A stretch of DNA of 62,601 bases, the filler included. It is 12 parts of 12 records of this genome, joined end to end, with 100 filler letters (N's around TTAATTAATTAA, not from the genome) between each part and the next. Parts side by side here need not be neighbours in the genome. Positions count along the whole stretch, not along the records: positions 34,270 to 40,732 come from SRR7504441_15803; 11 more parts are not named here. One strand, written 5' to 3'. The translations under genes were made by a program, and so were the position numbers. Below the pieces are notes generated by a model. That model was not told where the DNA came from and ran no database searches. It worked only from the letters and a program-made list of their open reading frames with translations. Of this stretch, positions 4,512 to 59,072 are shown in pieces. Within the stretch, counting starts at the first letter, position 1. The number at the start of each line of letters is the position of its first letter.

Positions 4512-4611
4512 NNNNNNNNNNNNNNNNNNNNNNNNNNNNNNNNNNNNNNNNNNNNTTAATTAATTAANNNNNNNNNNNNNNNNNNNNNNNNNNNNNNNNN
4601 NNNNNNNNNNN
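4512..4611. other. Artificial contig spacer (N run with TTAATTAATTAA). Identical spacers at 9519-9618, 15671-15770, 20547-20646, 24659-24758, 29159-29258, 34170-34269, 40733-40832, 52330-52429, 55508-55607, 58973-59072
   Basis: Eleven identical 100-nt N blocks, each with a six-frame-stop insert. Genes are truncated at these blocks. Confidence 0.99.
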
Positions 4612-9287: not shown

Positions 9288-9734
9288 AGTATGCAGTAAT
9301 GTTCAGATACAAATATTGCTTACCATAGCCATGGCAAGTCAGATGCACGTTCACCACGGTAGTAACTTAGTAGTAACTTACTTTGTATTGGAGTTTGACT
9401 TTGGCTACATTCGTCATACTCCTTGACTTGTAGATCACGGTTCAGATTTTAAAAACTTAAAATGATCTTATGTACGCAATACTACGAGTATGATTTTACC
9501 GGCTAGTACATCAGTTGGNNNNNNNNNNNNNNNNNNNNNNNNNNNNNNNNNNNNNNNNNNNNTTAATTAATTAANNNNNNNNNNNNNNNNNNNNNNNNNN
9601 NNNNNNNNNNNNNNNNNNTTAACCCTTCTGTGATTAACTGGAATTAATTCAAGGATACTACTACTACTACTACATGAACTCTACGTAACAAGTAATCAAT
9701 AGTCCCGATCGGGATTCATAATACATATCTACAT

Positions 9735-12700
9735 TCACAAAAAGTTTTCTATGTTCTCCTTGTCGAACACAGCACGTGTCGCGCTCTTTGGTTGGTACTC
9801 GGAATACCCCTTCGTGGGTGATTTGACCTCGTCAAAGATCGGATTGGACTGGCATGTAGAGGTTGATTGCATTGCATCCAGCCCCTCCCTGACAGCTCGC
9901 TTGTAGCTATTATTGTCCAGATCGGCATTGAAGTGTTGGTTGAAGTGCTCGAGGAACGGATGGATGCAGTCATTCTTGAGCTGGATTTTGGATCGGTTGC
10001 CACTGCCCAACCAGACCACCCATACACATCCGGCGCTGGCTGGCTCAAGCTCACCACTTACAACTCGAGCTGGCCACCACCGCGATACTTGCTTGGCCCA
10101 AACAACCTGACCTTTGCCAGTTCCTGGCTTTGTGTTTGGTCTGCCCCGAGCGTGTGCTTTGTTTGCCCGTGACAGTCCAGGGTTCTTGTGAGTGCAGTTG
10201 ACATTCTGAGTGGGACTCTTCCCATGCAACCGTGCACTTGATATTCGAGACAACTGGCGCTCGGCCCGTTGCTTGGCATTCTGAGCTGTCTTGAGTTCGT
10301 CGCGCAGCGATGCCTTTTCCTGAGCCAGGTTGCCGTTGTGTTTATCAATCGTAAACTGTTCCATCACAACTTGCTGCCACAGAACCAACGCAATCCGCAG
10401 TGCCCCAACGTAATACATGCTGCACACGACATACGCTTGTCGTAGCGCATACTTGTGATGTGCAGTCGACAGCTCGAGCGCGAGTTTGGCTCGCGTAGTC
10501 TGGAACCGCCATCGCCACTGCCTCCAGCTGGCTGCCAGACCCCGCCAGTAGCACAAGAGCCGACCTGCTTTAAGTTGCCCATTCCGCAGGTGCAGCCTCG
10601 ACTCGACCGCCCGCTTACGACTCTCGAGCTGATCACAACTCTGTGACATCTCTTCACAGTGGGCCTTCCACCTGGCCAGCTCCGACTCATATAGTTGCTT
10701 GGCCTTGACATGCTCCTCCAGCTCACCGACCGCCTTTTTGAGCTGCCGGGTTTTGGTCTGTAACTGCCTATCCTTCTCAAGCAGCATCTCGTTCATTGCT
10801 TCGCTCCTGGTGGCCAACAGCTCGGCACCTTTGATCCGGACGGCATTCAATTCCTCCTCAAACTGTGCCTGGTTCTTGACGCCCTCTGCAGTCCCAACTG
10901 CCGCCATCCGCTCCAGCTGATCCTCTGCAGCCCGAGCTCGCTGTTCCACCTCTTCCAGGCAATGCTGAAATATCTTTTGAGTCTTCTGCAGCGCCTGACC
11001 CTTCTCAAACTCCATATCGGCTCGTAATTGACTCTCGCGCCTCTGGTACTCCTCGTGGGCCCGCTGGTGCTGCGCTGTAAACTCAGCAGCAAGATCGACC
11101 ATTGCTTGATCTTTTGTCTGACCAGAAGTATGGGATTGGACGGACATCAACCGCCGAGACAACGACGCTCGCCAGAGGTACAGCCCCCACAGCAGAGCCT
11201 GCTTTCTCCGCCAGCGGGCTGCCTCAACAGCTCGCGTATAAGGGACAATCATCTTCTGGTGGTGATGTTGTTGCTGACGCGACGAGGAGTAGCGCCACCT
11301 ACCAATCAGTCGGAGCTGATGCATCCACAGCCGGCGCAGCTCCAGTGCAATCACTGCAGCGTAAAGTCGCACTGCAGCCATCTCCTTTTTCGCTGTCGAG
11401 AGCTGCATGCTGATTGAATGTGTCTTTGCCGCAGAGGCTCGAAGGTGAGCTGTCAGCCCTACCACTTGCCCCTCGGTTGTAGTTAGGGCTTGCTGGGCTT
11501 GAGTGAGCTCGGTACTCACAGTCGCATGGTCGGCCTGCAGAGCTTCCAGTCGAGACTTGAGTCTTTCGAGCTTGAACCGCTCCACAGTCAGTGCTGCGAG
11601 GCACTGGTTGGCCCAGCTCCATACCACCCGGCGCAGCCGAGTCACGTGCCGGCTAGCCCAGACTGCGCCAATCGCTGTCGACAGCATGTACGGTGTTCGT
11701 GCTTCGACAGCCTTGCGCACAGCCCGCTCGGCCTTTGACTGATAGTGCTCGCGGATCGCAGTGATGTCGGTGGCAGCCTGGGCAGTGAGGCTCCACCTCT
11801 GGAGCAGCAGGCTGAGCGGCACTCGGCGCAGAGCAGTGTAGGTGTGTCGCATGAGTTGGACAGCCTGGTGCTTCCGCAGCACGACGCCTTGTTGCTTCGC
11901 ATGAGCTCGGCTCTGATCCGCCTGCACCACCAATCAGTCTAGCGCGAAGGCAGGCTCACCAGTCGACTGATCTCGTGCCTCGCAACAGAGTTGACCTGCC
12001 CCACCCTCGAGCGAAGCGCCTCCTCCATCGACCGCTGCACCAGACGGCAGACTGCCCGGTGCATTGCGCGCAGCTCGAGCTGTTTGGTCAGCGAGTGAAT
12101 CAGCCGGAAGCCCTGCCGGTGCTTCAGCAGCCACAGCTCCGCCTGCGCCTCCTCCAGCTGCTCGTCCGCTTCCTCCTGTCCATTGGCCGCCGCGCGCCGC
12201 TGGTCGGCTCGCAGCTGGTCGGTCTCCCGTTCGAGCCGGTCGCGGGCCACCTGCTGCTCGGCCAGCTTCTGCACGTCCTCCCGCTCCTTGGCCTGAGCCA
12301 TCTCGACCGCCCGGCGCAGGTCGGCCACCTCCCGCTCCCGCTCGGCCTCCCGCGCGCTGCTGGCGGTCCGCAGCTCGCGCAGCTCGGTTTGGAGCTCGGC
12401 CGCCCGCCGCTCAGCCGGCTCGAGCTCCTCGGTGCGATCCATCAGAAGGTAGAGCTCGTCCTCCAGTTCGGACTGCTTGGCCTCGGCATCGGCCCGCGCC
12501 TGGCGCAGCTGGCCGTCCAGCGAGTCGCGCTCGGCCTCCAGGGTAGCCAGCAGGCGGCTGGCCGAGGCGGCCGCCCACCGGCGCATCGCCCAGGCGAGCG
12601 CGGTGAGCTGGAGCCGCTCGGCGAACTGGCGGAGCGACTGCTCGGCGCAGAGGTACTGGGCCTCGAGGGTGACCTCGTCCAGGCAGCGCTGCGCCACCGC

Positions 12701-15670: not shown

Positions 15671-15849
15671 NNNNNNNNNNNNNNNNNNNNNNNNNNNNNN
15701 NNNNNNNNNNNNNNTTAATTAATTAANNNNNNNNNNNNNNNNNNNNNNNNNNNNNNNNNNNNNNNNNNNNCAAACCAAGGTCCCAAGTTGTTGTCAATGG
15801 CACCGTGACCTACTCGACTCTACGCTTCACGAGAACATCAGGCGGTGCG

Positions 15850-18800
15850 ATGGGGAGGAAGCGGCGGCTGGTGGTGACACTCAGTTCCAGCGGGGACGAC
15901 TCGGGCCCCGAGCCGGACGCGTCGGCACAACCGGCCGGCCGCTCGGCCCAGGCCCCGATGATCATCTCGAGCGACGAAGACGAGCCCAAGGACAAGTCGG
16001 CGCCGGCTGTGGTCTCGGAGCCCGAGGAGCAGACGACGCGGCGGGAGACCCGTAGCGCCCGGCCGCGGAAGCGGCTGCGGCGGAAGGTGACGATCACCGA
16101 TGCTCCCCCGGTGGTTCTGGTGGATGCGCCCGGGCTGGGGCAAGTGGCGGTGCCGGCCCGGCTGGCCAGCTGGCTGCGTCCGCATCAGCTGGAGGGGGTC
16201 CGGTTTATCTGGCGAACAGTGATTTGGGACGAGGCAACAGACAGGCTCCGGCCGCATGAGGCCTCCAATGGCTGCGTGCTGGCCCACTGCATGGGGCTCG
16301 GTAAGACAATTCAGCTGATCGCGCTGTCCGCCGCGGTGATCGGGGCGCCGGCGCTCGGGCTGGCACGGCTGATGGTGCTGGCGCCGGTGAACACGCTCCA
16401 GAATTGGAAGCGCGAGGTGCAGAAATGGGCTGGGCAGGATGCAGAGCCGCTGTTCCCTGTGTTTTGTATGGACGATACTGGCCCGTCCAATACTAAGCGG
16501 GCTGCGCTGCTAAAGGACTGGCAGGCAGCGGGTGGGATGTTGTTAATAGGATATGAGGGATTTAGAAACATGGTGAACGGCAAGTCTGTCCGGAGCCAGG
16601 AGCACGCCGAGCTGTTCCGGCAGGCGCTCCTGGAGGGTGCTGACATGATGGCGTGTGATGAGGCCCACATATTGAAAAACAGCGAGTCTGCATTGAGCAA
16701 GGCAGTGCAACAGGTGGCATGTACGCGGCGGGTGCTGCTCACTGGCACTCCGATGCAGAATAATCTGATGGAGTACCACACCATGGTCGAGCTGATCAGA
16801 CCCGGCCTGCTCGGAAGTAAATCTGAATTCGATAAAATATTTGTCCAACCTATCCGAGCCGGCCAGTGCAAGGACTCGTCAGCGGAGCAGGTGAATAAGA
16901 TGAAGCAAGTGGCCCACGTGCTACACCGCAAGCTGGCCCCCATAGTGCACAGGAAGGACTACAACGTGCTGGCTGAGATGTTGCCTCAGAAACACGAGTA
17001 TGTGATCTCAGTTAGACTTACGCCGCTGCAAGTGCAGCTCTACAGGGCATACCTGAGCTCCCAGCTGGCTAACGCGGCCCGCACCAGCGGGGCGGGGGTC
17101 TTTGGGGCCTACCATGAGCTGGCAAGGGTGTGGACTCACCCTTGCCTGCTAGAAGGGCTCGAGAAACAGGAGCGGGATAAGAGGGCGTACGACAGCATTG
17201 ACGACTTCGTTGTCGACTCTAGCGACGAGGAATGGGACGGGAAGCTCCGGCCGGGGCAGAGTGCGGTGGATCGTGGAGACGGGAAGAAGAAGCCGGCTGC
17301 AGCCAAGAAGGAGGGCTGGTGGGGTGGGTTGTTGGAGGAAGTCGGGTTGCATTCGGGACTGGACCAAGTCAGTGGCAAGCTGGTGATTCTGCTCATGCTG
17401 TTGGATGAGGTGGCCAAGACCGGGGATAAGATGCTGGTCTTTTCACAGAGCATAGACGTTTTGGAGGCGATTGAGCAAGTGCTCGAGAGTGACATAGGCG
17501 GACGATGGCAGCTAGGCCGGGACTATTTTAGAATCGACGGGAGCACGAGCACCAAGGTCCGTCAAGGCTGGGTGGAGAGATTCAACGACAAAATGAACGC
17601 CAGGGCCCGGCTGTTTCTAGTCTCAACCAAGGCCGGAGCGTTGGGGATTAATCTGGTCGGGGCAAACCGGGTGTGCTTGTTTGATGCCGCTTGGAATCCG
17701 AGCTACGACTTGCAGGCGATATTCCGAGCGTACCGTCTCACCCAGACCAAACCGGTCTACGTCTACCGGCTGCTAGCGCAAGGCACCATGGAGGAGAAGA
17801 TATACGAACGGCAGGTGACCAAACAGGCGCTCGCCTCGCGCGTTGTGGACCACGAGCAAAAGGTGCGCAGCTACACCACTGCCGAGCTGGCCGAACTATT
17901 CTCTTTCGATCCGCAGACCAATCCCAGCCAACCAGGCGCGGCAGGCGCAGCCGGGCTAGCTGGGTATGAGACGAGCGGGCCACCGGCTGATCGGGTGCTT
18001 GCGCGTGTTTTGCTGCAGCTGTCGCCTCGCTGGATATGTGGGTACCACCAGCACGATTCGCTGCTCCAAGAGGACGAGGAGGCCCACCTGTCCGAGGAGG
18101 AGCAACAGGCAGCCTGGCAACGGTTTGAGCACGAGCTGCAGAGAGAGCAACAGGCTGCCGACCATCTGAGACAAGAGCTGGAACGGCAACAGGCCGAACG
18201 ACAGGCAGCGGCCAAGCGAAGGGAGGAGGCGAGCAGGAATCCACCTCAACATCAGGCGTTTGTTGGGCCTGCTGCGACTCTGTTCAAAGTCCAGCAGGCG
18301 GCGCAGCAGAATGCACAGCGGGAGAGCCTGAGGCTCGCTGCCCAGCTGCCGCCCAATCTGCTCGGCCATCTCGGCAAGAGGGTGGAGCTCAAAGGGCTGA
18401 CCAAGGATACAACACTCAACGGACAGCATGGCACGATTGTGTCCTTCGATGTAGAGACCAGTCGATGGTCAGTCATGCTCGATTCTCAGCCCAAACGGAG
18501 TTTCCGACTTAAAGGGGAGAACCTGCAGGTGATGATGGAGCAGCAAGGGTCTGCCAGCCAGCAGGCCTGGAGCCGGACCTGTCAACAGCAAGGAAGGAGC
18601 TACTCGAGTGCAGTCGACCCAAGCAGGGCCTACGTGCAGTCCGCCACCTGGGAGCAGCAGGCGGCTCAGATGAGAGCACAGATGGAGGCGGCGGCTCAGG
18701 CCCGAGCGCGAGCGGCGGCGCAGCAGCGAGCGGCGGCCGGCTGGCGGCAGCAGGTACGGGCTTGCGAGATGCTAGGGTTGGCAGGACTACCCGGCTCGGT

Positions 18801-18942
18801 ATCGCAACTCAAAGAGGCGTTCAAGGCGGCGGCGAAGCGGACGCATCCGGATAGGAACATCGGAGACCCCGAGGCTGAGGCCAATTTCAAGAATGTCAAC
18901 GAGGCATACACCCAGCTGAAGTTGCTTTTCATGGCCAAATGA
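15850..18942 (+). CDS. SNF2-family helicase (ATRX/RAD54L2-like) with a C-terminal J-domain; intronless
   Basis: LRPHQLEGVRFIW, GCVLAHCMGLGKT, CDEAH, LLTGTPMQNNLMEY, STKAGALGINLVGANRV, WNPSYDLQAIFRAYR. C-terminal AAKRTHPDRNIGDPEAEANFKNVNEAY. Confidence 0.92.
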   Translation: MGRKRRLVVTLSSSGDDSGPEPDASAQPAGRSAQAPMIISSDEDEPKDKSAPAVVSEPEEQTTRRETRSARPRKRLRRKVTITDAPPVVLVDAPGLGQVAVPARLASWLRPHQLEGVRFIWRTVIWDEATDRLRPHEASNGCVLAHCMGLGKTIQLIALSAAVIGAPALGLARLMVLAPVNTLQNWKREVQKWAGQDAEPLFPVFCMDDTGPSNTKRAALLKDWQAAGGMLLIGYEGFRNMVNGKSVRSQEHAELFRQALLEGADMMACDEAHILKNSESALSKAVQQVACTRRVLLTGTPMQNNLMEYHTMVELIRPGLLGSKSEFDKIFVQPIRAGQCKDSSAEQVNKMKQVAHVLHRKLAPIVHRKDYNVLAEMLPQKHEYVISVRLTPLQVQLYRAYLSSQLANAARTSGAGVFGAYHELARVWTHPCLLEGLEKQERDKRAYDSIDDFVVDSSDEEWDGKLRPGQSAVDRGDGKKKPAAAKKEGWWGGLLEEVGLHSGLDQVSGKLVILLMLLDEVAKTGDKMLVFSQSIDVLEAIEQVLESDIGGRWQLGRDYFRIDGSTSTKVRQGWVERFNDKMNARARLFLVSTKAGALGINLVGANRVCLFDAAWNPSYDLQAIFRAYRLTQTKPVYVYRLLAQGTMEEKIYERQVTKQALASRVVDHEQKVRSYTTAELAELFSFDPQTNPSQPGAAGAAGLAGYETSGPPADRVLARVLLQLSPRWICGYHQHDSLLQEDEEAHLSEEEQQAAWQRFEHELQREQQAADHLRQELERQQAERQAAAKRREEASRNPPQHQAFVGPAATLFKVQQAAQQNAQRESLRLAAQLPPNLLGHLGKRVELKGLTKDTTLNGQHGTIVSFDVETSRWSVMLDSQPKRSFRLKGENLQVMMEQQGSASQQAWSRTCQQQGRSYSSAVDPSRAYVQSATWEQQAAQMRAQMEAAAQARARAAAQQRAAAGWRQQVRACEMLGLAGLPGSVSQLKEAFKAAAKRTHPDRNIGDPEAEANFKNVNEAYTQLKLLFMAK

Positions 18943-20440: not shown

Positions 20441-20777
20441 TGACCGGTATTCGAGTAGACTACGCGTATTTTCAAGTACACATAATTATAGACTTACCGG
20501 TATTCGCACAAGGCATTTTTTAAAACAAGAGATTCAGGGATCGATTNNNNNNNNNNNNNNNNNNNNNNNNNNNNNNNNNNNNNNNNNNNNTTAATTAATT
20601 AANNNNNNNNNNNNNNNNNNNNNNNNNNNNNNNNNNNNNNNNNNNNGTACAAGCGAGCGTCAAGTACAAAGCAAACTTGTAAGCATGTCGAATGAAGTGT
20701 ATGCGTACAACAAGAAAGAATGGTACGATACATATCCCAATTCATTAAATTTCATTGGTTCCCGCAATTGAATTGTG

Positions 20778-24658: not shown

Positions 24659-24758
24659 NNNNNNNNNNNNNNNNNNNNNNNNNNNNNNNNNNNNNNNNNN
24701 NNTTAATTAATTAANNNNNNNNNNNNNNNNNNNNNNNNNNNNNNNNNNNNNNNNNNNN

Positions 24759-29072: not shown

Positions 29073-29293
29073 GCTCCGGCGGTGAGCTACCGGGTGTGCT
29101 GGGGGGGGGTGGTGGGGCTGTGCGTGGCGAAGAGCGTGGAGGAGGTGGCCGGGATGGTNNNNNNNNNNNNNNNNNNNNNNNNNNNNNNNNNNNNNNNNNN
29201 NNTTAATTAATTAANNNNNNNNNNNNNNNNNNNNNNNNNNNNNNNNNNNNNNNNNNNNTAGGTTGGTGGTTGACACCGGGATCCACGCAAAGC

Positions 29294-34169: not shown

Positions 34170-34269
34170 NNNNNNNNNNNNNNNNNNNNNNNNNNNNNNN
34201 NNNNNNNNNNNNNTTAATTAATTAANNNNNNNNNNNNNNNNNNNNNNNNNNNNNNNNNNNNNNNNNNNN

Positions 34270-37200
34270 ACAAGTCTCTACTGGAGCGGGTGCTACAATG
34301 TTCACTACAACACTTGCAGCATTCCAAGTCTTGCTGTGCAAGTCTGCCCGCCAGGACAGCGTTGTGGTGGGGATACCCTATCATGGTCGTGAAAGCGCTG
34401 ACTTTGATAACATGATTGGCTTTTTTGTCAACACGTTGGCATTCTACTCGGAAGTTCAGTGGGACAGCTCATTCATGAGCTTCTTGAAAGCCACACAGCC
34501 TAGAATGGAGCAGGCCTTGCTGCATGGTCAGGTGAATTTCAAGGACGTAGTGCAGGCCCTTGGGCTACCATCAGATCCCTCCCGAAACCCGATTTTCCAG
34601 GTAATGTTCCTGTGGGTGGAGGCTAGAACACAGCCAAAGCTGGGCGAGATGCCAATGGTGCCGTTCATGGTGGACAATGGGACGTCCAAATTTGATCTTA
34701 CTCTTGATCTTGAAGTCGGACCTTCAGGAGAGCTGCATGGTTTCCTGGAGTATTGTACAGAGCTGTACGAGCAAGGCAGCATTGAACGCATGGCAGATCA
34801 TCTACGTGTGCTACTGCAAAGCATTGGAACTCAACCAGAGACGCCAATGTCGCATCTAAGTATGCTTCATGAACAAGAACAGGCCATACTAAACGAATGG
34901 AACGGCGCGGCTGAGTACGATTGCGAGCTGGAGGGGCTGCCCAAGCAGTGCGTTCACGAGATGATCGGAAAGCAAGTCGACCGGAGCCCGTCCAGCGTCG
35001 CCCTGCGGTACGAATGGACCGACCGGAGCTACGCACAGCTGTGGCAGGCAGCCTCGCAGGTGGCCGTGGCGCTGCGGGCGAATGGGTGCAGTGTGGGGAG
35101 CTTTGTTCCTCTGATGGTGGATCGGAGCATAGAGATGATGGTCGGCATGGTTGGGATTCTGATGGCCGGATGTAGCTACTCTCCTTTTGCGCCGTACATG
35201 CCTGCAGAGCGGCTGGAGTTCATGGCGAGCGACCTGGATGCCAGTGTAGTGCTCACAGTGGAGAAGCACCAGAAGCTGGCTGGCTCGATAGGGGTGGGCT
35301 GCGTGCTTCGACTGGACAAGGACATTGATCAGGCCGCGGTCAAGAAGTACCAGCTGCCTGAGATGGGGCCGACTCAGAACATGATGTGCCTGTATACTTC
35401 AGGTTCGACTGGCACGCCAAAGGCAGTGGCACTGAGCCACCAGGCCGTGATGAGTCACCTATGGTATATTGTGAAGGAGTACGATTACACCTCGGCCGAC
35501 CGGTACCTGCAGAGCGTGTCATTCACATTTGTGGCGTCGCTGCCTGAGCTGTTTGGGGTGTTGCTGGTGGGCGGATGCGTGGTGTTGGCGCAGCCGGATG
35601 CGCTGATGGACATGGAGGCACTGGGCGAGTACATGGCAACCCAGGAGGTGACATTGGCGCAGTTCATCCCATCTGTGATGAGCGCGTTCCTTGAGCTGTC
35701 CAGTCTGAGCTGCAAGAAGCTCCGTGCGGTGGTGCTGACTGGTGAGCCGCTGCCACTGGCGCTTCTGGAGAAGGTGACCAACCATCGACCAGATGTGCTG
35801 TATTTGAATCACTATGGCTGTACCGAAGTGACCGACACTACCACGGTGTTCAAGATCCGCGGTCCGCCCAAGGCGCAGTACAAATGCGTACCAGTGGGCA
35901 AGCCGGTGCCTTACCGGATCACGCTGGTGCTTGATCCTCAAAGGCAGCCTGTGCCGATCGGGGTGCCTGGTGAGCTGTTCGCGGTCGGGGTCGGGCTTGC
36001 GACTGAGTACTTGAAGCGGCCTGAGCTGACAGCTGAGAAGTTTGTGACGGGGCTGTGTGGATATGACAGGGCATATGCGACAGGCGACTTGGTGCGCTGG
36101 AAGCACAATGGCGAGATGGAGTGTTTGGGTCGGATGGACTTCCAGGTGAAGGTGAACGGACTGCGGATTGAGTTAGGCGAGATCGAGGGCGCGGTTTCCA
36201 AGCACCCTGCAGTGAACGAGGCAGCAGTGTTGCTGCAGGATCTTCAGCTGATTGCTTATGTATCGCCACCCCCAGAAGACGGCGGTGCGGGTCTGCTGGA
36301 GCATTGCCGGAGTCTGCTACCTGGGTACATGGTGCCCGTGGCGGTGATTGGGATGTCGGAGTGGCCTCGCAACGCGAATGGCAAGCTTGACCGCAAGGTA
36401 CTGCCTAAATATGAAAAGCCTGCTGCTGTCTCAATGAGTTCATATGAGGCTCCGTTGTCTGGAGAACTTGCTGCTCCTTATGTCGCGTTTGTGGCCAAAG
36501 TTGTTTCCGGGATCGTGGGATCACCTGTGGCAGCTCTGAGCAACACTGTGTTCCAGCTCGGTGGTACTTCCTTATCTGTTGCTCGCATCACCTCAGAGCT
36601 CAGGAAGGTGTCGCCAGGGATCACTCTGCGACAGATCTATGCAAATCCCTCCATTGGGGCAATCGCAGAGCTCATCAAAGATGACTTCATCGCTGCTCAA
36701 GGTTGCGGTGATGCAGCAGCCCCGGCTGACAAGCGAGACCCATCTCGGCCACGCATAATCAACTATCAGCACAGGCTATTCTGCCTTGGCTGGGTTGTCT
36801 TCTTCTTGGTAATCCTGCTCGATGCTGCAATAACAGCGTGTGTCAATATGATTCCATGGTTCTGGCTGGTCTTGGCCGTCACAGATCGGTCAGATGCGGC
36901 TGTGCACAATGGTGTGAATGTCTTGGGACTCAAGCTAGTCCTCGCGACAGGCTGGGATCTGGTCGCCATCCTGATTATCTTCTCGCTTGTGGCTACCTAT
37001 GTACCTGGGCTGGTGTTTATGATTCTGCACATGCTGTTCAAGTGGTTACTGATGGGCAAGTACGAGCCTGGGCAGCACCCAGTGTATGGCTTCTACTACT
37101 TGCGCTGGTGGTTTGTGCATCGCCAGTCACTCAAAGTGCGCTACGCGCATTATTGGCTCAACATTTTTGCTCGGACACCTTTGCTGGTTGGCTATCTGCG

Positions 37201-39640
37201 CATGCTGGGAGCTAGCATTGGGCGTGGTGTGTACATAGACGGAATGAACATCGGCGATGGCATTTCAATGCACGAGCCCGATCTAGTGGTTGTGGGCGAT
37301 GCCACCATCTTCAACAATCAAGCCACCGTCTTGACTCACAGTATCCGCGATGGGTATCTCTCACTGGATGGTGTTCTAGTCGGGTCCTACTGCCAGGTTG
37401 GTGCTCTCAGCCACATGCGCTTGTTTGATCCCTCTGTGCAGGTAGGGTGTCGGACACTGCTGATGCCTGGCGCTGTGATGGGTGACCATGTTACTCTATG
37501 CGAGCACTCGGTTCTACAGCAAGAACAGGTATGCCTCCTGCTGCCCTCGAACTCCTGACCGGCCAACTAGGTTGCTGTCAGTGGCTCCACCCTGAAAGGG
37601 TCGCCTGCCCAGATCTCAGAAAGCAGCTACTATAGTGAATATTTGAACCGAAAGGTACCTATCTCACACATGGAACGAGAGCAGCCTGGCCTGGAAGCCC
37701 TGGGCCTACCCCTCCTCGGGGATACAGTGGGCCGTTATCCAGCTTTCAATTTCACTTCTGGGAAGAGCGCCACTGTAATTGCTACGATTTTGCTATTCAT
37801 GCCACTGATCAAGCTGTCAATTGTGGCGCCTCCCATCTATGTGTTCTACAAGCTTTTGGAGGGCTTTGGCTTTGAGTGGGAAATCGCACCCTCTGACTTG
37901 CGGATTCAGACCATCGTGTTCCTGCCAGCTTGCTTTCTAGCTTGGTGTGCTGGGCACATACTTCTCATTCCGATATACAAGCGGCTGATACTTCCAGGAG
38001 GACTGACACCGGGAGTCGTGCCGTTGGTGAGCTGGCAGTACGTAAGGATGTGGCTAGGAATGAATGTGCTGAAACTCACCGCTCCAATCGATGACTTCTT
38101 ATACGGCACAATGATGATCCCGATCTGGATCAAGCTGCTTGGTGGCAACATCCCAATGAACGCCGAGTGCGCGGCGCACCTCAATACTCTGACCTTCGTC
38201 CCAGAATTGGTCAGCTGCACCCGCGGCTGCGTTCCCTGAGCCTCTGTATCGCAGGTGATGTTTGAAAACGAGTCGTTTGTGGCGTCGCACGTGGATGTTG
38301 GATCGATGCTTGTCAATAAAGGGCATGTGATCCTTAGCGAGGTGACTTGACTAGCTGCGACCTAGCCAGCGGGGAATGCTCAGATAACTCTGGGAGAGCG
38401 GAGTATGCTCGGCAACCACTCGTGGCTTTCACCTGGGACTACGATTGGCCACTCTGCATTGATTGGTACGTACGAGCGGGCTACAGTCTGCTGACGCCCA
38501 AATCCAGGTGCTTACACTGTCAATCCGATTATGAAGGTACCAGACGGCACAACCTGGTATCTTTTCCTGCCTCTGTATCTCGAAATGAGTCTTGTTGCAG
38601 GTTTGGTGCACCAGCAATTGAACTGCCAAAGCGCTTTGTGGACGATAGCAGCGCAGATGCATACAATCCGAGCTGTGGCCAGAAGCTTTTGAGGGCAGTG
38701 ACGGAGTTTTTCAATGCCATCACCGATTCGATGCTCATGTCTGGGATCTGGCTCTACTATGGGCTCGCGCTTGTTGTCACAGTGCTGTATCTGCGACCGA
38801 TCTGGTGGCCGTTGGCCTGCGTAGCCACACCTGTGCTGCTTTGGCTGCTTTGTATCGCTACGGTCAAGTGCTGCAAGCTGCTTCTCATTCGTGGCGACGG
38901 CACATCCAGAATGCTCCCACTGGTGCGATCTCTCCAATTGCAGCTGACTCACCTCTGTCTGGCAGTGGGGGCAGCCGCTCAACTTGATGATGTGGTTCAA
39001 GCGGTGTGAAGATATTCTGGACCGTGACATCGTCCACCAGTTCAGTGGTAGTCCCTTTGCAGGTCGATTGCAGCCGCTGCCAGAAACTGACTCTTTGGCA
39101 GGATCGATGCTCCGGTTGTTAGGAGCATCGGTTGGCAAGCACGGGTTCTTCCATGGCATGTGGGCCTGCGAGTGGGACATGTTCAGCTGTGGAGATAACG
39201 TCTCAATCCACTACTGCGACATTCAAACTCACCTCTTCGAGGATCGGGTCTTCAAATGCAACCCAGTCCAACTAGGCCACGATGTCACCTTGCTGCCTCT
39301 CTCGCTGGCTCTGCCCCGGGTCCAGATCGAGGACGGGGTCACCATTGGTGCCAAATCGTGCGTGATGCAGGGCGAGACGGTCCCTGCCGATACATACTGG
39401 CAAGGTGCCCCGATGGCTATGGTTAAGCAGACCAAAACAGCTGGAGGGGCCAAGAACCCAGCCTCGCAGCCTGTCAGCTCGAGGCGGCTCGTCAGTAGGC
39501 GCTCACAACAGCGCACAGCCAAGACTTTGAGATCTGGCCGGGCCCGCCCGAGGCAGCAGGTTCCCGCTGCCGCTCAAGACCAAAACATTACAATCGGAAG
39601 CAGTCAGCTCTCCTCCAAGATGATGCCCGATTTTGTGTGA
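34270..39640 (+). CDS. Non-ribosomal peptide synthetase: partial C - A - PCP - Pls-type terminal module (3x transmembrane plus beta-helix repeats); 5'-truncated; 8 introns
   Basis: C-domain half (IGFFVNTL, SRNPIFQVMF, SKFDLTL), A motifs (YTSGSTGTPKA, NHYGCTE, GELF..GVGLATEY, YATGDL, GRMDFQVKVNGLRIELGEIE, LPGYMVP, NGKLDR), PCP QLGGTSL, then KWLLMGKYEPGQHPVYG..YLRWW / LRMLGASIG / GSPA, WFGAPAIELPKR, QTHLFEDRVFK, WQGAP. Introns: 37397-37441, 37529-37570, 38210-38254, 38342-38383, 38466-38507, 38557-38600, 38923-38965, 39063-39101 (first and last are in-frame and inferred). Confidence 0.93.
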
Positions 39641-39884
39641 GTGGTCGTGCTGGCTCGTTTTTGACTTACTTGTACTCGTAATTGGTACTCATGATTGTGC
39701 TACGTACGGTGTACGAGTAATTGTGCAAAGAAATTTCGAGTACATATACGAGTAGTCGTTTATGTAGTCGTTTATGAATGATTGAAGTAAAAAGATTTAT
39801 TATAGACTACCGGCATGCCGAAGCCACACGACATTCCTTTACTTCTTTAGCTTGGATTTGAGACTATTTACCTGATTTTCCATC

Positions 39885-40503
39885 TCAATCCGCGCCTGTC
39901 TTTCGTGAGCAACTTGCTTCTCCAGTAGCGCCATTTTCTTTAAGACCTGATAGTCGCTGCTCATTCCTGCGCCCGATAGTCGGCCTACTCACACGCCCCA
40001 GCCACGATCTCACCGGCCGCGCGCGTGCTGTGCTGCCTATTGCATCGGTGGCTATCAGCGCACTGTGATGAAACTCCTGTCGCGAACGAGGCCATGCTGC
40101 CACACCGTCGCGCCTAGCGCGGCAGCTCCAGCGCCACCTGTTCGCAGTCCCCGGGCGCTCCGTCTGGGCCGTCCCCGGCCGGCTCTGGGCGGTACCGGGC
40201 CTGCTGCCCAGCGGCTGGGTCCGGCCGTTGTTGTCTAGTCTATCGGGCTGCCCTCCGCTCAGCCCGGCCCGGGGCCGTATTCGAATGCCTCCGTGTCGAC
40301 AGCGAATGGCGCCGAGTGATGCGTCGGGGCCCGGCTCTCCCGGTTGGACGGGCGCGAGAACGACAGGCCCTCGAGCACCTGGGCTCCCTGCTGGGACCCC
40401 GGCAGCACCGGGGGGGTACCTTGCGGTTCTCCTTGTCGATGCGGCGCTTCCAGGCCGTAGACATCTGCGCGGGCCCACTCGGCCCCCGGCCCGGGCGGCT
40501 CAT
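39885..40503 (-). CDS. Small basic hypothetical protein with RPGTA repeats (possibly ciliary)
   Basis: MSTAWKRRIDKENRK followed by SRPGTAQSRPGTAQTERPGTANR. Exon structure uncertain. Confidence 0.45.
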
Positions 40504-40832
40504 GTCACCGCATTGCTGTACATGGTCATCCTCGACTGCCAAGCGCGCCACCCTGTGGCGTAGCGGTGTTGTGATTCCAATTTGGTCAGAATTTTGCGCG
40601 TCCAATTTCTCGATCGCGATTTCAGGCAGTCCGCGCAGCCCTCAGGAACAGACCGTACATGCGGGCCTACAGCAGGTGTGAGATGGTGTCAACGCTCACG
40701 GTCAACTACTGCATGTTTGGGTGGCCGCTGTTNNNNNNNNNNNNNNNNNNNNNNNNNNNNNNNNNNNNNNNNNNNNTTAATTAATTAANNNNNNNNNNNN
40801 NNNNNNNNNNNNNNNNNNNNNNNNNNNNNNNN

Positions 40833-52329: not shown

Positions 52330-52447
52330 NNNNNNNNNNNNNNNNNNNNNNNNNNNNNNNNNNNNNNNNNNNNTTAATTAATTAANNNNNNNNNNNNNNN
52401 NNNNNNNNNNNNNNNNNNNNNNNNNNNNNCGCCTGCACGAGCAACAC

Positions 52448-55344: not shown

Positions 55345-55949
55345 GTCCCCAGAACCACAAGCAGTGCCGTTATCACACGCACGCCTGACCGGACCGCAAA
55401 ACTCAAGTTCATCAAGCTACATAGGCAGTACCAGCTACAAAACTACTACAAAACCTCATTCTAGAAAAGTCGGTTACTCCATGCCGCTGTGGCGGGTAAG
55501 GCGGCGGNNNNNNNNNNNNNNNNNNNNNNNNNNNNNNNNNNNNNNNNNNNNTTAATTAATTAANNNNNNNNNNNNNNNNNNNNNNNNNNNNNNNNNNNNN
55601 NNNNNNNGAACCGGATTGTACAATAGAACTATACTAGCACTTTGACTTGAAACAAGGTGTACTCGTTTAGCGTAAATTGCGCTCTAGATTAGTTGTAGAT
55701 AGGTTGCGATAATCGAGTTTCATGATCACTCTTGAAATCTTCAGTTTATTCATATGTAAGTCTATACGGTATTCATTCCACATCCGGATACAAAGCACCA
55801 AGTCTTTGTATCTATCCATTGCTTCATGAACAAAGCGGGCGCCAGCCAGCCGGCGCCCATTGCAATCCCGCCTGTCTATAAGCTCGCATTAAGCTCGCAA
55901 TAGACCCACTGGATTGTGTCTAGCTAAGAAAGGAGGCAGCAGCCGTAAT

Positions 55950-58700
55950 TTACGACATGTCCACAACCTTGCGGCTGGTGTTGAACACGCCCTGCCCGTT
56001 GTTGATCCCGCAGAAGAAGTCGGCGAACACCAGTGAGATGATCGCCATCAGCTTCATCAGAATGTTGAGCGCAGGACCAGACGTGTCCTTGAGTGGGTCG
56101 CCAACAGTGTCGCCCACGACAGCGGACTTGTGCACCTCAGTCTTCTTGGCGTGCCTGTAGTAGTGCTCGTCGGCGTTCTGGCCAACAGAGTCCAGCTTGG
56201 CCAGGTGCGCGGCCTGGGCCTCGTGGGCCTCAACCTCGACAGCCTGGCCCATCGGGTCCTGGCTCTTGAGGATCACATTGCCCTTCTCCACGTACTTCTT
56301 GGCGTTGTCCCACGCGCCACCGGCGTTGGACTGGGAAATGGCCAGCTGGACCCCGGAGGTGAGTCCTCCTACCAGCAGACCGCAGACGGCCTCCACGCCA
56401 AAGAAGATCCCGGTGATGATTGGTGACAAGATCACGAGCAGACCGGGCAGGATCATCTCCCGGAGTGACGACTCTGTGGAGATCTTGATGCACTGGGTGT
56501 AGTCCGGCTTGTCCGGCGAGTTCTCCTGGATCAGGGACGGGTTGGCATCGAACTGACGCTTGACCTCCATCACCATCTCCTTAGCAGCCACACCGACCGA
56601 CTTCATAGTGAATGCAGTGAACGCGTACGGCAGCATCGCACCAATAAACAGGAAGGCGAATGTGATCGGCTGCAGAATGTCGATCACAATCGAGATGCTC
56701 TGCCCGTCCAGGGTCGGGAGCTGTGCCAGATGAGTCGACACGCGAGCCTGGAATCCGCCAAACAGCGCCAGGGACACAAGCGCAGCAGAGCCGATCGCGA
56801 AGCCCTTGCCAATCGCGGCGGTGGTGTTGCCAGCGGCATCGAGGGCGTCAGTCTTGTCGCGCACGTCCTCAGGGAAGCCAGCCATCTCGGCGAGCCCTCC
56901 AGCGTTGTCGCACACGGGGCCGTACACGTCAATCGACAGGCAGGTGGAGAGAGTGCCCAGGAACCCGAGGGCTGAGAGTGCCACGCCGTACATACCGGCG
57001 TACTTGAAGGCCACGAACACGTTGATGGCGATGATCGCGATCGGGATGATGCAAGACTTGTACCCAAGGGCGAGCCCGTAGATGATGTTGGTGGCGGCGC
57101 CAGTCTCACATGAGTAGGCCACGTCACGCACCGGGGTGTACGAGTGCGAGGTGTAGTACTCGGTGACGAACCCGATGATGCACCCGCCGAACAGACCGCA
57201 CGCGATGCACAGGAACGCGTCCCAGCGGGAGACGGCAGAGGTAACACCCTGGATCACGAACTCGGATGGGAGGAACGCGTAGCACATGGGGACCATCACG
57301 CCAGTCATCATGACGCAGGTGAGCCCGAGCTGCACCTTGAGCACGGTCTCGACGTCCTCCTCCTTCTTAACAGTCCAAATGTGAGTGGCCACAAACGAGC
57401 AGACCATGCACACGAAGATGGACACAGCTGAGATGAGCAGCGGGAACATGAGCGAAGCGAAGCCGGACTCGACCAGGAAGGGGGTCTTGGTGGCGCACTC
57501 GATCAGGTTCTCGGTGGTAGTGCAGGTGCACGAGATGAAGTCGTGCGCGTAGAGGAAGTCCATGGTCGGGTACTGGGTGGAGATCACCAGCGCAGCGCAG
57601 GTGGCCTCAGCAAAGGAGCCGAACAGGTCAGAGCCCATGCCAGCAACGTCACCGACGTTGTCGCCGACGTTGTCAGCGATGGTGGCTGGGTTGCGAGGAT
57701 CGTCCTCCGGGAGGTTGTTGACCACCTTGCCAGCAAGATCGGCACCAACATCAGCAGCCTTAGTGTAGATGCCACCACCGACGCGACCGAACAGGGCGAT
57801 GCAGGAGCCGCCAAGACCGTACCCGGCGATGCACTCCATCAGAGTGGTGACCTCGAGGGTTTGGCCGTTGTCATCGTAGGCGCTGGAGTTGTGCAGGTCA
57901 TAGTTCTTGTCGAACACAGTGGCAAAGATGTTGATCAGGATGAACAACACGCCCAGAGCCAGCCCGCACAGAGCGAAGCCCATCACGCTGCCCGCCTGGA
58001 AGGCGGTGTTGAAGCAAGAAGTCCAGGCGGCTGCCTCGTCCTTTTTGGCGGCCTGCATGGCGCAACGAGCATTGGCGAACACAGCCACGGTCATCCCAAT
58101 GTAGCCGGACAGGATCGAGGTGAGCCCACCCACGGCGAACGAGACGGCGGTGAGCCCGCCGACCGACCAGTTGAAGCTCTTTGCGGCCTCGTGGCCCATA
58201 AAGAGCTTGCCGACGGTGACGGTCGCGTTATGCGCGTCGAGGGTGGAGGTCGGATCGATGATGGCCCGTGGGTTGGTGTAGTCGCCGGCTGCGGTGTTGA
58301 CGTATGCAGTCAGGAAGAGCACGATCAGCCCGAACACCGCGATGAAGATGAAGCACAGGGTGTACTCGGCCAGGAGGAACGCGTTGGCGCCCTCCCGCAC
58401 CAGCTCGTAGATGTAGGCCAGCTCGGTGTACATGTTGGACGACATCTCGTCCATCAGGGGTTGGGTGTTGTCGCCCTCGCTCTTGGACGGCTCGTCCAGC
58501 GAGACCTTGGCGACCTGCATGAATTGGTAGATCGCGAACAGGATCCCGACCACAGAGGCCACCACGATCAGGATGGAAGCCGCGCTAGCGCTGGCGTTCA
58601 CATCCGCGCCAGTGGTCGCGGTCCAGGCTACAGTCGTGTTGACGTCGAACGCAAAGTTCTTGCACGCGCCTGCTGCGGCATCCAAGCTCGGGATCGACAT
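55950..58700 (-). CDS. Vacuolar/acidocalcisomal H+-translocating pyrophosphatase, K+-dependent type; intronless
   Basis: RVGGGIYTKAADVGADLAGKV..LPEDDPRNPATIADNVGDNVGDVAGMGSDLF, DALDAAGNTTAAIGKGFAIGSA (GNxxAA), GGAWDNAKKY, GDTVGDPLKDTSGP. Confidence 0.98.
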   Translation of the reverse strand: MSIPSLDAAAGACKNFAFDVNTTVAWTATTGADVNASASAASILIVVASVVGILFAIYQFMQVAKVSLDEPSKSEGDNTQPLMDEMSSNMYTELAYIYELVREGANAFLLAEYTLCFIFIAVFGLIVLFLTAYVNTAAGDYTNPRAIIDPTSTLDAHNATVTVGKLFMGHEAAKSFNWSVGGLTAVSFAVGGLTSILSGYIGMTVAVFANARCAMQAAKKDEAAAWTSCFNTAFQAGSVMGFALCGLALGVLFILINIFATVFDKNYDLHNSSAYDDNGQTLEVTTLMECIAGYGLGGSCIALFGRVGGGIYTKAADVGADLAGKVVNNLPEDDPRNPATIADNVGDNVGDVAGMGSDLFGSFAEATCAALVISTQYPTMDFLYAHDFISCTCTTTENLIECATKTPFLVESGFASLMFPLLISAVSIFVCMVCSFVATHIWTVKKEEDVETVLKVQLGLTCVMMTGVMVPMCYAFLPSEFVIQGVTSAVSRWDAFLCIACGLFGGCIIGFVTEYYTSHSYTPVRDVAYSCETGAATNIIYGLALGYKSCIIPIAIIAINVFVAFKYAGMYGVALSALGFLGTLSTCLSIDVYGPVCDNAGGLAEMAGFPEDVRDKTDALDAAGNTTAAIGKGFAIGSAALVSLALFGGFQARVSTHLAQLPTLDGQSISIVIDILQPITFAFLFIGAMLPYAFTAFTMKSVGVAAKEMVMEVKRQFDANPSLIQENSPDKPDYTQCIKISTESSLREMILPGLLVILSPIITGIFFGVEAVCGLLVGGLTSGVQLAISQSNAGGAWDNAKKYVEKGNVILKSQDPMGQAVEVEAHEAQAAHLAKLDSVGQNADEHYYRHAKKTEVHKSAVVGDTVGDPLKDTSGPALNILMKLMAIISLVFADFFCGINNGQGVFNTSRKVVDMS

Positions 58701-59072
58701 GCTCGCACGATCGAACCACACGAGCGAAACTCTACAGGACTCTGAGAGGCGTGCGTGAGACTATCAAAATGAGCTAAAAATAAACCAGCCCGAATGCAGG
58801 CTGCCGCGACGCACAGTAAACACTTTGATGCGTTTGATGTTGCCGCGTGTGGCTGGGAGGCGACGAATTATGATAGTCTCGAGTGCCGGACCCCGATCCA
58901 CGTTTATTAGACCCACGTGTGAGGTAGCCGCTATGAAGTGAGGAGAGTCCGTTAAAAATGGATCGGCCGGGGNNNNNNNNNNNNNNNNNNNNNNNNNNNN
59001 NNNNNNNNNNNNNNNNTTAATTAATTAANNNNNNNNNNNNNNNNNNNNNNNNNNNNNNNNNNNNNNNNNNNN

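Follow-up and report, generated by a model that had tools for sequence, protein, structure and literature searches.

The window analysed here is a stretch of DNA of 62,601 nucleotides (positions 1-62601) in which 12 separate contigs of 3-11.5 kb are joined end to end, and the element under study is a nonribosomal peptide synthetase (NRPS) gene carried by one of them. This contig (34270-40732, no strand assigned) is 6463 bp long, has a GC content of 0.557 and is bordered by spacers on both sides. The gene runs off its 5' end, which is a contig end and not the start of the gene. After removal of eight GT..AG introns of 39-45 nt, a single frame of 5028 nt was obtained in which the sole stop codon is the terminal one. 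The frame encodes the C-terminal lobe of a condensation (C) domain, an adenylation (A) domain, a peptidyl carrier protein (PCP) domain and a membrane domain in three repeats. The last is of the type found in Pls, the epsilon-poly-L-lysine synthetase of Streptomyces albulus, and in PosA, the delta-poly-L-ornithine synthetase of Acinetobacter baumannii. The first three domains were read with Pfam (Condensation, AMP-binding, AMP-binding_C and PP-binding) on the long open reading frame (ORF) 34271-37558. The features of the gene are as follows.

34271-39640, plus strand: 5'-truncated coding region, 9 exons and 8 introns, 1675 codons, TGA stop codon at 39638-39640
34289-34888, plus strand: NRPS condensation domain, C-terminal lobe (Pfam Condensation, residues 7-206, model positions 248-454 of 456, E = 2.1e-35)
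34970-36385, plus strand: adenylation domain (AMP-binding and AMP-binding_C; AMP-binding E = 3.9e-66), core motifs present
36491-36676, plus strand: PCP (PP-binding), attachment serine in LGGTSL at 36557-36574
36758-39427, plus strand: Pls/PosA-type terminal domain, three repeats of two transmembrane (TM) helices, short helices and a left-handed beta-helix (LbH)

The original prediction, made from the letters of the sequence, had described one spliced gene with a partial C domain, an A domain, a PCP and a three-repeat end. The Pfam domains, the pieces matched by the TIGR02353 model and the single frame of 1675 codons are in agreement with this description. The introns, all on the plus strand and all of the GT..AG type, are listed below.

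37397-37441, plus strand: intron 1, 45 nt, in frame and stop-free
37529-37570, plus strand: intron 2, 42 nt, with in-frame TGA and TAG
38210-38254, plus strand: intron 3, 45 nt, placed by frame and by collinearity with P0050
38342-38383, plus strand: intron 4, 42 nt, acceptor placed by frame and by collinearity with P0050 alone
38466-38507, plus strand: intron 5, 42 nt, placed by frame and by collinearity with P0050
38557-38600, plus strand: intron 6, 44 nt, the TWFGAPA motif being created by splicing
38923-38965, plus strand: intron 7, 43 nt, spliced junction in RNA contigs
39063-39101, plus strand: intron 8, 39 nt, junction read from the end of an RNA contig

Two of the eight introns (7 and 8) were found spliced in RNA contigs. 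The 43 nt of intron 7 are skipped in one contig each of the X7 polyA and X8 cDNA metatranscriptomes, which come from different studies. For intron 8, an X8 contig (record 14) matches from 39098 and carries 9 loose letters that are the end of the upstream exon, the placement being explained by four letters common to both sides of the junction. Introns 3-6 lie outside the cover of RNA contigs, which says nothing for or against them. The spliced protein was also aligned with P0050, a spliced transcript of Telonema subtile: 758 identities were counted over 1449 ungapped columns, the alignment is gapless at 8/8 junctions and no insertion of at least 5 residues is present in our protein. The presence of eight introns, and with it the nuclear rather than bacterial nature of the gene, was thus confirmed by the GT..AG borders, by the RNA junctions of introns 7 and 8 and by the collinearity with P0050.

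Intron 1 is stop-free and its retention would therefore keep the frame. In an AlphaFold2 (AF2) model its 15 encoded residues interrupt the six-residue period of the beta-helix and form a block of low confidence (residues 231-240, predicted local distance difference test (pLDDT) 57) between neighbouring blocks at 95-97. The metagenome fragments P0052 (69% identity) and P0129 (77%) diverge exactly at the intron 1 site, and P0054 (61% identity) and the Telonema transcripts are continuous across it. Intron 1 thus behaves as an insert.

Other splice forms were tried and rejected. A 73-nt GT..AG intron at 37655-37727 would shift the reading frame, which is open both before and after it; a 28-nt form of intron 4 (38342-38369) breaks the frame; and a 24-nt form of the same intron leaves 6 extra residues relative to P0050, where the 42-nt form is gapless. 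The X7 records 8 and 9 and the X4 record 2 overlap the gene by only 19-33 letters, so that they were assigned to other genes or paralogues and not used as evidence. An RNA contig of X4 (174 nt, the deepest of the RNA contigs compared with the gene) matches only 34361-34393 (33 bases, 3 differences) and to either side of this match is unlike the gene-bearing contig; it may come from a paralogous C-domain module of the same community. The contigs of run X5 over 37344-37853 differ from the window by two C>T changes, at 37390 and 37486. All eight introns lie within the last 2.2 kb (37397-39101) and the first 3126 nt of the coding sequence are intron-free, a clustering that has a chance of about 4e-4 under random placement in the 5028-nt coding sequence. 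Six of the eight intron lengths are divisible by three.

The contig begins at position 248 of the Pfam Condensation model, and the N-terminal lobe with the catalytic HHxxxDG motif lies upstream of the contig end. In the lobe that is present, conserved motifs were recognised that we take to be C5 (IGFFVNTLAF) and C7 (SDPSRNPIF(Q)). The fragment aligns to the C domains of Txo2 (3.2e-38) and Txo1 (1.2e-36). Its identity to the C domain of the Telonema subtile protein P0209 is 69%, the A domains being 66% identical, and bacterial proteins do not exceed 40% identity in this fragment.

The A domain scores above the cutoff of TIGR01733 (360.9 bits for a cutoff of 317.4). The motifs LYTSGSTGTPKAV, NHYGCTE, YATGD, GRMDFQVKVNGLRIELGEIE, NGKLDRK and LGGTSL, which we presume to be the named core motifs of A and PCP domains, were all read in the spliced frame, and to judge from them the catalytic core of the A domain is intact. 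The C-A-PCP unit closely resembles bacterial elongation modules (LgrA module 2, E = 2e-186).

In A domains, Asp235 is the residue that binds the alpha-amino group of the substrate. The 10-residue specificity code of our protein reads VAPQVTHDTK, in which the Asp235 column holds Val and the third position is not Glu, and it is identical in P0209 and P0199, another Telonema subtile transcript. The code positions were set by their offsets from the core motifs and then checked against the code published for the Methylobacterium-type clade. A code of the DLEDIGTV(T/V/I)K type is reported for Methylobacterium/Rhizobia-type homologues (PMC10522769). With our mapping the Methylobacterium/Microvirga relatives gave DLEDLGTVVK and DLEDIGSVVK, which differ from the published code at position 5 or 7. 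Eleven ordinary relatives of adenylation-thiolation-terminal (A-T-terminal) order gave DAESIG(T/S)V(V/I/A)K, DLESIGTVIK, DLEDIGSVVK or DLEDLGTVVK. The pocket of this ordinary family, in which Asp235 and acidic residues accommodate a diamino acid, is absent from our protein, and so is the Asp235 expected of a canonical module for an alpha-amino acid, which is Val in our protein, P0209 and P0199. The substrate is therefore, on the code, probably not lysine (Lys), ornithine (Orn), 2,4-diaminobutyric acid (Dab) or 2,3-diaminopropionic acid (Dap), and it may be a compound devoid of a free alpha-amino group. Position 330 is occupied by an Asp to which a distal amine could bind.

The terminal domain was matched in four pieces by TIGR02353, and six hydrophobic segments arranged in three pairs were found by hydropathy.

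36713-37528, plus strand: TIGR02353 piece 1, 82.2 bits
37571-38239, plus strand: TIGR02353 piece 2, 32.1 bits
38338-39009, plus strand: TIGR02353 piece 3, 19.5 bits
38948-39640, plus strand: TIGR02353 piece 4, 96 bits, E = 1.9e-27
36764-37057, plus strand: TM pair 1 (segments at about 36764-36868 and 36938-37057), with KWLLMGKYEPGQHPVYG at its end; model helices 17-61 and 83-114
37766-37978, plus strand: TM pair 2, about 37766-37849 and 37904-37978, by hydropathy
38728-38895, plus strand: TM pair 3, about 38728-38793 and 38809-38895, by hydropathy
39224-39247, plus strand: QTHLFEDR of repeat 3, with His and Leu nearly invariant (at least 90%) in our alignment A1

The unspliced pieces cover model positions 251-377, 432-535 and 579/591-694. 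The three repeats also cross-match each other in tblastn with six Pls-type homologues. All the motifs quoted in the original prediction are present in the spliced protein: KWLLMGKYEPGQHPVYG, LRMLGASIG and LRLLGASVG, LKGSPA, TWFGAPA and YWQGAPM, and QTHLFEDR. A (T/S)H pair stands in our protein at the equivalent spots of repeats 1 and 2. By analogy with the hexapeptide acyltransferases, the His of QTHLFEDR is a candidate catalytic base.

Repeat 1 (36713-37528) was modelled by AF2 from a 42-row alignment with a pLDDT of 82 and a predicted template modelling score (pTM) of 0.74. The model shows two long and three short helices together with a beta-helix. When it was compared by Foldseek with the Protein Data Bank (PDB), the first match was the maltose O-acetyltransferase 4isx_B (E = 1.4e-3, prob 1.00, TMt 0.53), followed by serine and galactoside acetyltransferases. 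A sequence search of the PDB with a terminal piece returned only 3 rows at chance level (E about 0.9). The assignment of repeats 2 and 3 comes from sequence repeat matches. The terminal module had been predicted as a triplet of TM pairs and beta-helices, which is supported by the TIGR02353 pieces, the hydropathy and the AF2 and Foldseek results on repeat 1. In the literature, the terminal domain of the family has likewise been modelled with three LbH repeats carried by six helices (PMC10522769).

The LbH (hexapeptide) acyltransferases are the best structural matches of repeat 1 (4isx_B, 1ocx_A and 3srt_A; prob 0.99-1.00, TMt about 0.5), but the identity is about 12% and they are soluble homotrimers using acyl-CoA, whereas our protein carries three unequal repeats in one chain, is anchored by TM helices and would be fed by a PCP thioester. 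The likeness to Pls and PosA is more extensive: an A domain and a PCP stand directly before a terminal domain of about 750 residues in three repeats (PMC10522769), and the six TM segments in three pairs with LbH are also those of the family. The motifs KW..G.(Y).PG, LR.LGA.IG, WxG(S/A)P and QTHLFEDR are common to both. Our protein differs from Pls and PosA by its upstream condensation piece (Pfam Condensation E = 2.1e-35, in a family of single modules lacking a C domain) and by a code devoid of Asp235 and of the acidic side-chain-binding residues. Its gene is eukaryotic with 8 introns, and its TIGR02353 pieces stay below the cutoff.

The closest relative was found among the Telonema subtile transcripts (EukProt EP00656). 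P0199 and P0050 (Trinity DN3238), which are cluster-mates labelled as Telonema subtile Trinity transcripts by EukProt, show 52% identity over the 1449 columns, share the domain order and the A code of our protein and are collinear with it over all intron sites. They differ by a C-terminal half of the C domain that is degenerate. P0199 also possesses a Pro/Ser/Arg-rich low-complexity insert of about 220 residues (P0199 about 1280-1500) between repeat 1 and TM pair 2, which is absent from our protein and appears there as gaps of 19, 10, 59 and 134 columns. A second Telonema subtile transcript, P0209 (Trinity DN5752), is similar in its C (69%) and A (66%) domains and in its code, but it represents an internal module with an intact C domain (HHIVTDG, read as MHHIVTDGWS), in which a further C domain, and not a membrane domain, begins after the PCP. 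The P0209 and P0050 ORFs begin, and one of them also ends, with peptides that we take to be adapter-like, and their limits would then be assembly ends and not protein ends. The presence of one code in an internal (P0209) and in terminal modules suggests that one and the same monomer is strung into an oligomer.

An exhaustive, profile-free search with repeat 1 gave 1466 representative proteins at E <= 1e-3, and domains were counted in the best 150 of these 1466 matches. The A domain stands at the very N-terminus in 74 of the 150, and 52, mostly fragments, have no A-domain match. Pfam, applied to 11 of the 150 and to P0199, gave a condensation match in P0113, P0119, P0143, P0169 and P0199. P0119 (a Phalansterium solitarium transcript), P0113, P0143 and P0169 resemble our protein by this condensation match before an A-T-terminal unit and by codes lacking Asp235 in three cases of four (GIWTICLM-K in P0113 and P0143, VMRVQAGAHK in P0169, DVSDVAIVTK in P0119). 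They differ by C domains that are truncated or degenerate in their motifs and, for P0143 and P0169, by a terminal domain only 27-32% identical to ours. A local C-domain profile trained on our protein, P0209, P0199, P0119, P0113, P0143, P0169 and P0210 matched 9 of the 150 proteins, 5 of them by construction or as cluster-mates; the only clear new match was P0098 (7.3e-11), those of P0051, P0063 and P0102 being weak. A look-alike in the Atlas (score 0.92, cluster of 53, 94% eukaryote, most commonly Bacillariophyta) is mentioned as a lead only. Fusions were observed after the terminal domain with COesterase (P0143), Acyl_transf_1 (P0169) and a 4'-phosphopantetheinyl transferase (P0051), and before the A domain with an ODP/metallo-beta-lactamase domain (P0110).

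Taken as a whole, the locus is read, with a fair degree of confidence, as an expressed protist gene coding for the last module of an NRPS with a Pls/PosA-type end. In the mechanism proposed for it, the steps after loading are drawn by analogy with Pls/PosA and the hexapeptide acyltransferases. The spliced transcript of a nuclear gene from a marine or aquatic heterotrophic protist would give the last module of the synthetase, and the A domain would adenylate one monomer and load it on the PCP. The C domain, if intact, would join the chain coming from earlier modules to the loaded monomer. The PCP thioester would then be handed to the membrane-anchored LbH bundle (six TM helices and three packed left-handed beta-helices), where a conserved His, for which QTHLFEDR is the candidate, may act as base for the attack of an acceptor nucleophile. 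By acyl transfer the product would be set free at the membrane or across it, a single time or, as in polymerisation, repeatedly. The product could be an oligomer built from a single unusual monomer, which the membrane domain would finish, polymerise or export.

Several observations weigh against this interpretation. The TIGR02353 pieces, which were scanned unspliced, sum to about 230 bits for an NCBI cutoff of 423.1, and the orthologue P0199 (333.5) and P0119 (324.1) also stay below this cutoff. No Foldseek match to the PDB was obtained at E <= 0.001 for the repeat 1 model, and the code names no substrate. The other points concern the C domain. P0199 (2033 residues, starting with Met) matches positions 184-456 only of the Condensation model, has no HHxxxDG and has a degenerate C5 motif; in P0113 and P0143 the sequence opens with the C-terminal lobe; P0119 possesses a near-full C domain with HP...DN instead of HH...DG. 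The C domain is thus truncated or degenerate in 4/4 relatives with a recorded start (P0199, P0113, P0143 and P0119), and P0098, by its weaker local-profile match, shows the C-terminal lobe only. A scan of metagenome contigs with the C fragment for a 5' extension gave 1 locus at 31% identity among 132 pattern matches, which was not used. A word-index search with the terminal region for longer proteins gave 0 of 2610 candidates (1918-5000 residues), a weak negative as the same search also missed P0143 and P0169. These C-domain data would suit a stand-alone enzyme of a single module, in which the lobe, as in P0199, is a non-catalytic platform for the A domain, no module exists upstream and the A-T-terminal part works alone. 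The motifs resembling C5-C7 in our fragment are, however, canonical, the identity of the C domain to P0209 (69%) matches that of the A domain (66%), whereas the remnant in P0199 is down to 33% identity with ours and has lost its C5 motif, and the starts of P0199, P0113 and P0143, taken from a Trinity ORF and intron-blind gene calls, may not be true protein starts. The stand-alone enzyme is therefore regarded as a serious but doubtful alternative. Because the fragment is canonical, 69% identical to P0209 and conserved like the A domain, we lean to a C domain that is probably intact and working, with at least one module upstream; that the fragment is a remnant of the lobe is a lesser, though still substantial, possibility. 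As for the C domain and the additional module announced by the original prediction, the C-terminal lobe (E = 2.1e-35) is present, but the additional module is not established by the contig, the HHxxxDG half lying beyond its end.

An ordinary cationic homopoly(amino acid) synthetase of the epsilon-polylysine or delta-polyornithine type, placed in a protist, would share the terminal-domain family and the A-T-terminal order, and homologues in lower eukaryotes are reported (PMC10522769). The code VAPQVTHDTK, devoid of Asp235 and of the third-position Glu that are read in the codes of the 11 ordinary relatives, and the C-domain piece speak against it, and this alternative is very improbable. Contamination by bacteria, a bacterial contig placed in the wrong bin or a decayed pseudogene would account for a C-A-PCP unit so similar to bacterial modules (LgrA, 2e-186), for a short contig that stands alone and for the contigs of the oligo-dT run X5, which also count against an expressed and spliced gene since they are unspliced through intron 1 and at both ends of intron 2, i.e. 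for 2 of the 8 introns. These unspliced contigs could stem from pre-mRNA or carried-over DNA, from retention of the introns or from a close strain. Against contamination or decay stand the eight frame-restoring GT..AG introns and the spliced junctions in polyA and cDNA data, the best relatives, which are eukaryote transcripts with 52-69% identity vs at most 40% for bacteria, and the absence of any frame damage after splicing; we consider such an origin extremely unlikely. With the last module of an NRPS bearing a Pls/PosA-type end retained as the preferred reading, a more specific form of it can be imagined: a hybrid modular and iterative line in a telonemid-like flagellate, in which several modules with one identical pocket (VAPQVTHDTK) lacking Asp235 would build an oligomer that the Pls-type domain polymerises or exports. 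Its monomer would have no alpha-amino group, e.g. an omega-amino or another side-chain-linked acid. This scheme is speculative and rather unlikely; if it were true, a eukaryote would make a non-lysine polyamide and the C-bearing proteins would form a functionally distinct branch of the Pls/PosA family.

The Pls-type link made by the original prediction holds for the terminal domain; the reading as a simple homopoly(amino acid) synthetase is weakened because the A code is not of the diamino-acid type. The protein is best filed as an uncharacterised Pls/PosA variant rather than as a polylysine-type synthetase. To our knowledge, every known enzyme of the Pls/PosA type is a single-module synthetase whose product is a cationic isopeptide polymer (epsilon-polylysine, delta-polyornithine, poly-Dap/Dab). 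Our gene and a handful of uncharacterised relatives combine the same membrane domain with a condensation piece and with pockets that are not those of diamino acids. Asp235 has been lost in three C-bearing lineages (the Telonema-like group including our protein, P0113/P0143 and P0169), which suggests, from the codes, that the terminal domain may be a more general membrane-bound device for chain release or polymerisation than its characterised members show.

The restriction of the family to bacteria and a few fungi, as stated in the original prediction, was too narrow: two sources report Pls-type homologues in Amoebozoa, Metazoa and Alveolata (PMC10522769) and an NRPS_term_dom gene family across Symbiodiniaceae (bioRxiv 10.64898/2026.09.08.749829). 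A search of the literature, with supplements outside its reach, yielded no account of a branch that bears a C domain or lacks Asp235, none of a Telonemia NRPS, and neither a solved Pls terminal domain nor a protist polylysine synthetase. The claim that no protist example is characterised stands, but protist Pls-type genes and architectures with a C-like domain before an A-T-terminal unit are already in databases and, for a part, in print, none of them being characterised. The value of the present gene is limited by its 5' truncation and by this prior printed mention of protist homologues.

Among proteins, the gene product is most closely related to eukaryote transcripts, and the identity of bacterial proteins stays at or below 40% in the C fragment; we conclude that the gene is a protist nuclear gene. 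Our best guess for the host, by protein similarity, is a telonemid or a relative. The stretch is partly present in runs labelled aquatic, marine or estuary metagenome (shares 0.05-0.26), and such shares point to no habitat more precise than these labels. With this gene, a lineage of marine heterotrophic flagellates about which little is known would gain an expressed NRPS.

Past the stop codon, the segment 39641-40732 starts with an AT-richer stretch, followed on the minus strand by a short coiled-coil-like ORF that ends at 39839 and begins with MSSDYQVLKK.... From about 40000 to 40700 the contig is very GC-rich, with long low-complexity frames on both strands. The 11 spacers of the window, each of the form N44-TTAATTAATTAA-N44, account for 22 runs of 44 N and lie at 4512-4611, 9519-9618, 15671-15770, 20547-20646, 24659-24758, 29159-29258, 34170-34269, 40733-40832, 52330-52429, 55508-55607 and 58973-59072. 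Since the 12 contigs are merely joined, genes across a spacer are not linked. The domains found on the other contigs are of eukaryote type (SNF2 helicase with DnaJ, PWWP, EF-hand), and an H+-pyrophosphatase and a sulfatase were also found. Three of these features were located, and their contigs are consistent with a eukaryotic bin.

9735-11933, minus strand: PWWP-domain protein
15772-18942, plus strand: SNF2 helicase with a C-terminal DnaJ domain
55950-58760, minus strand: H+-pyrophosphatase, 747.6 bits

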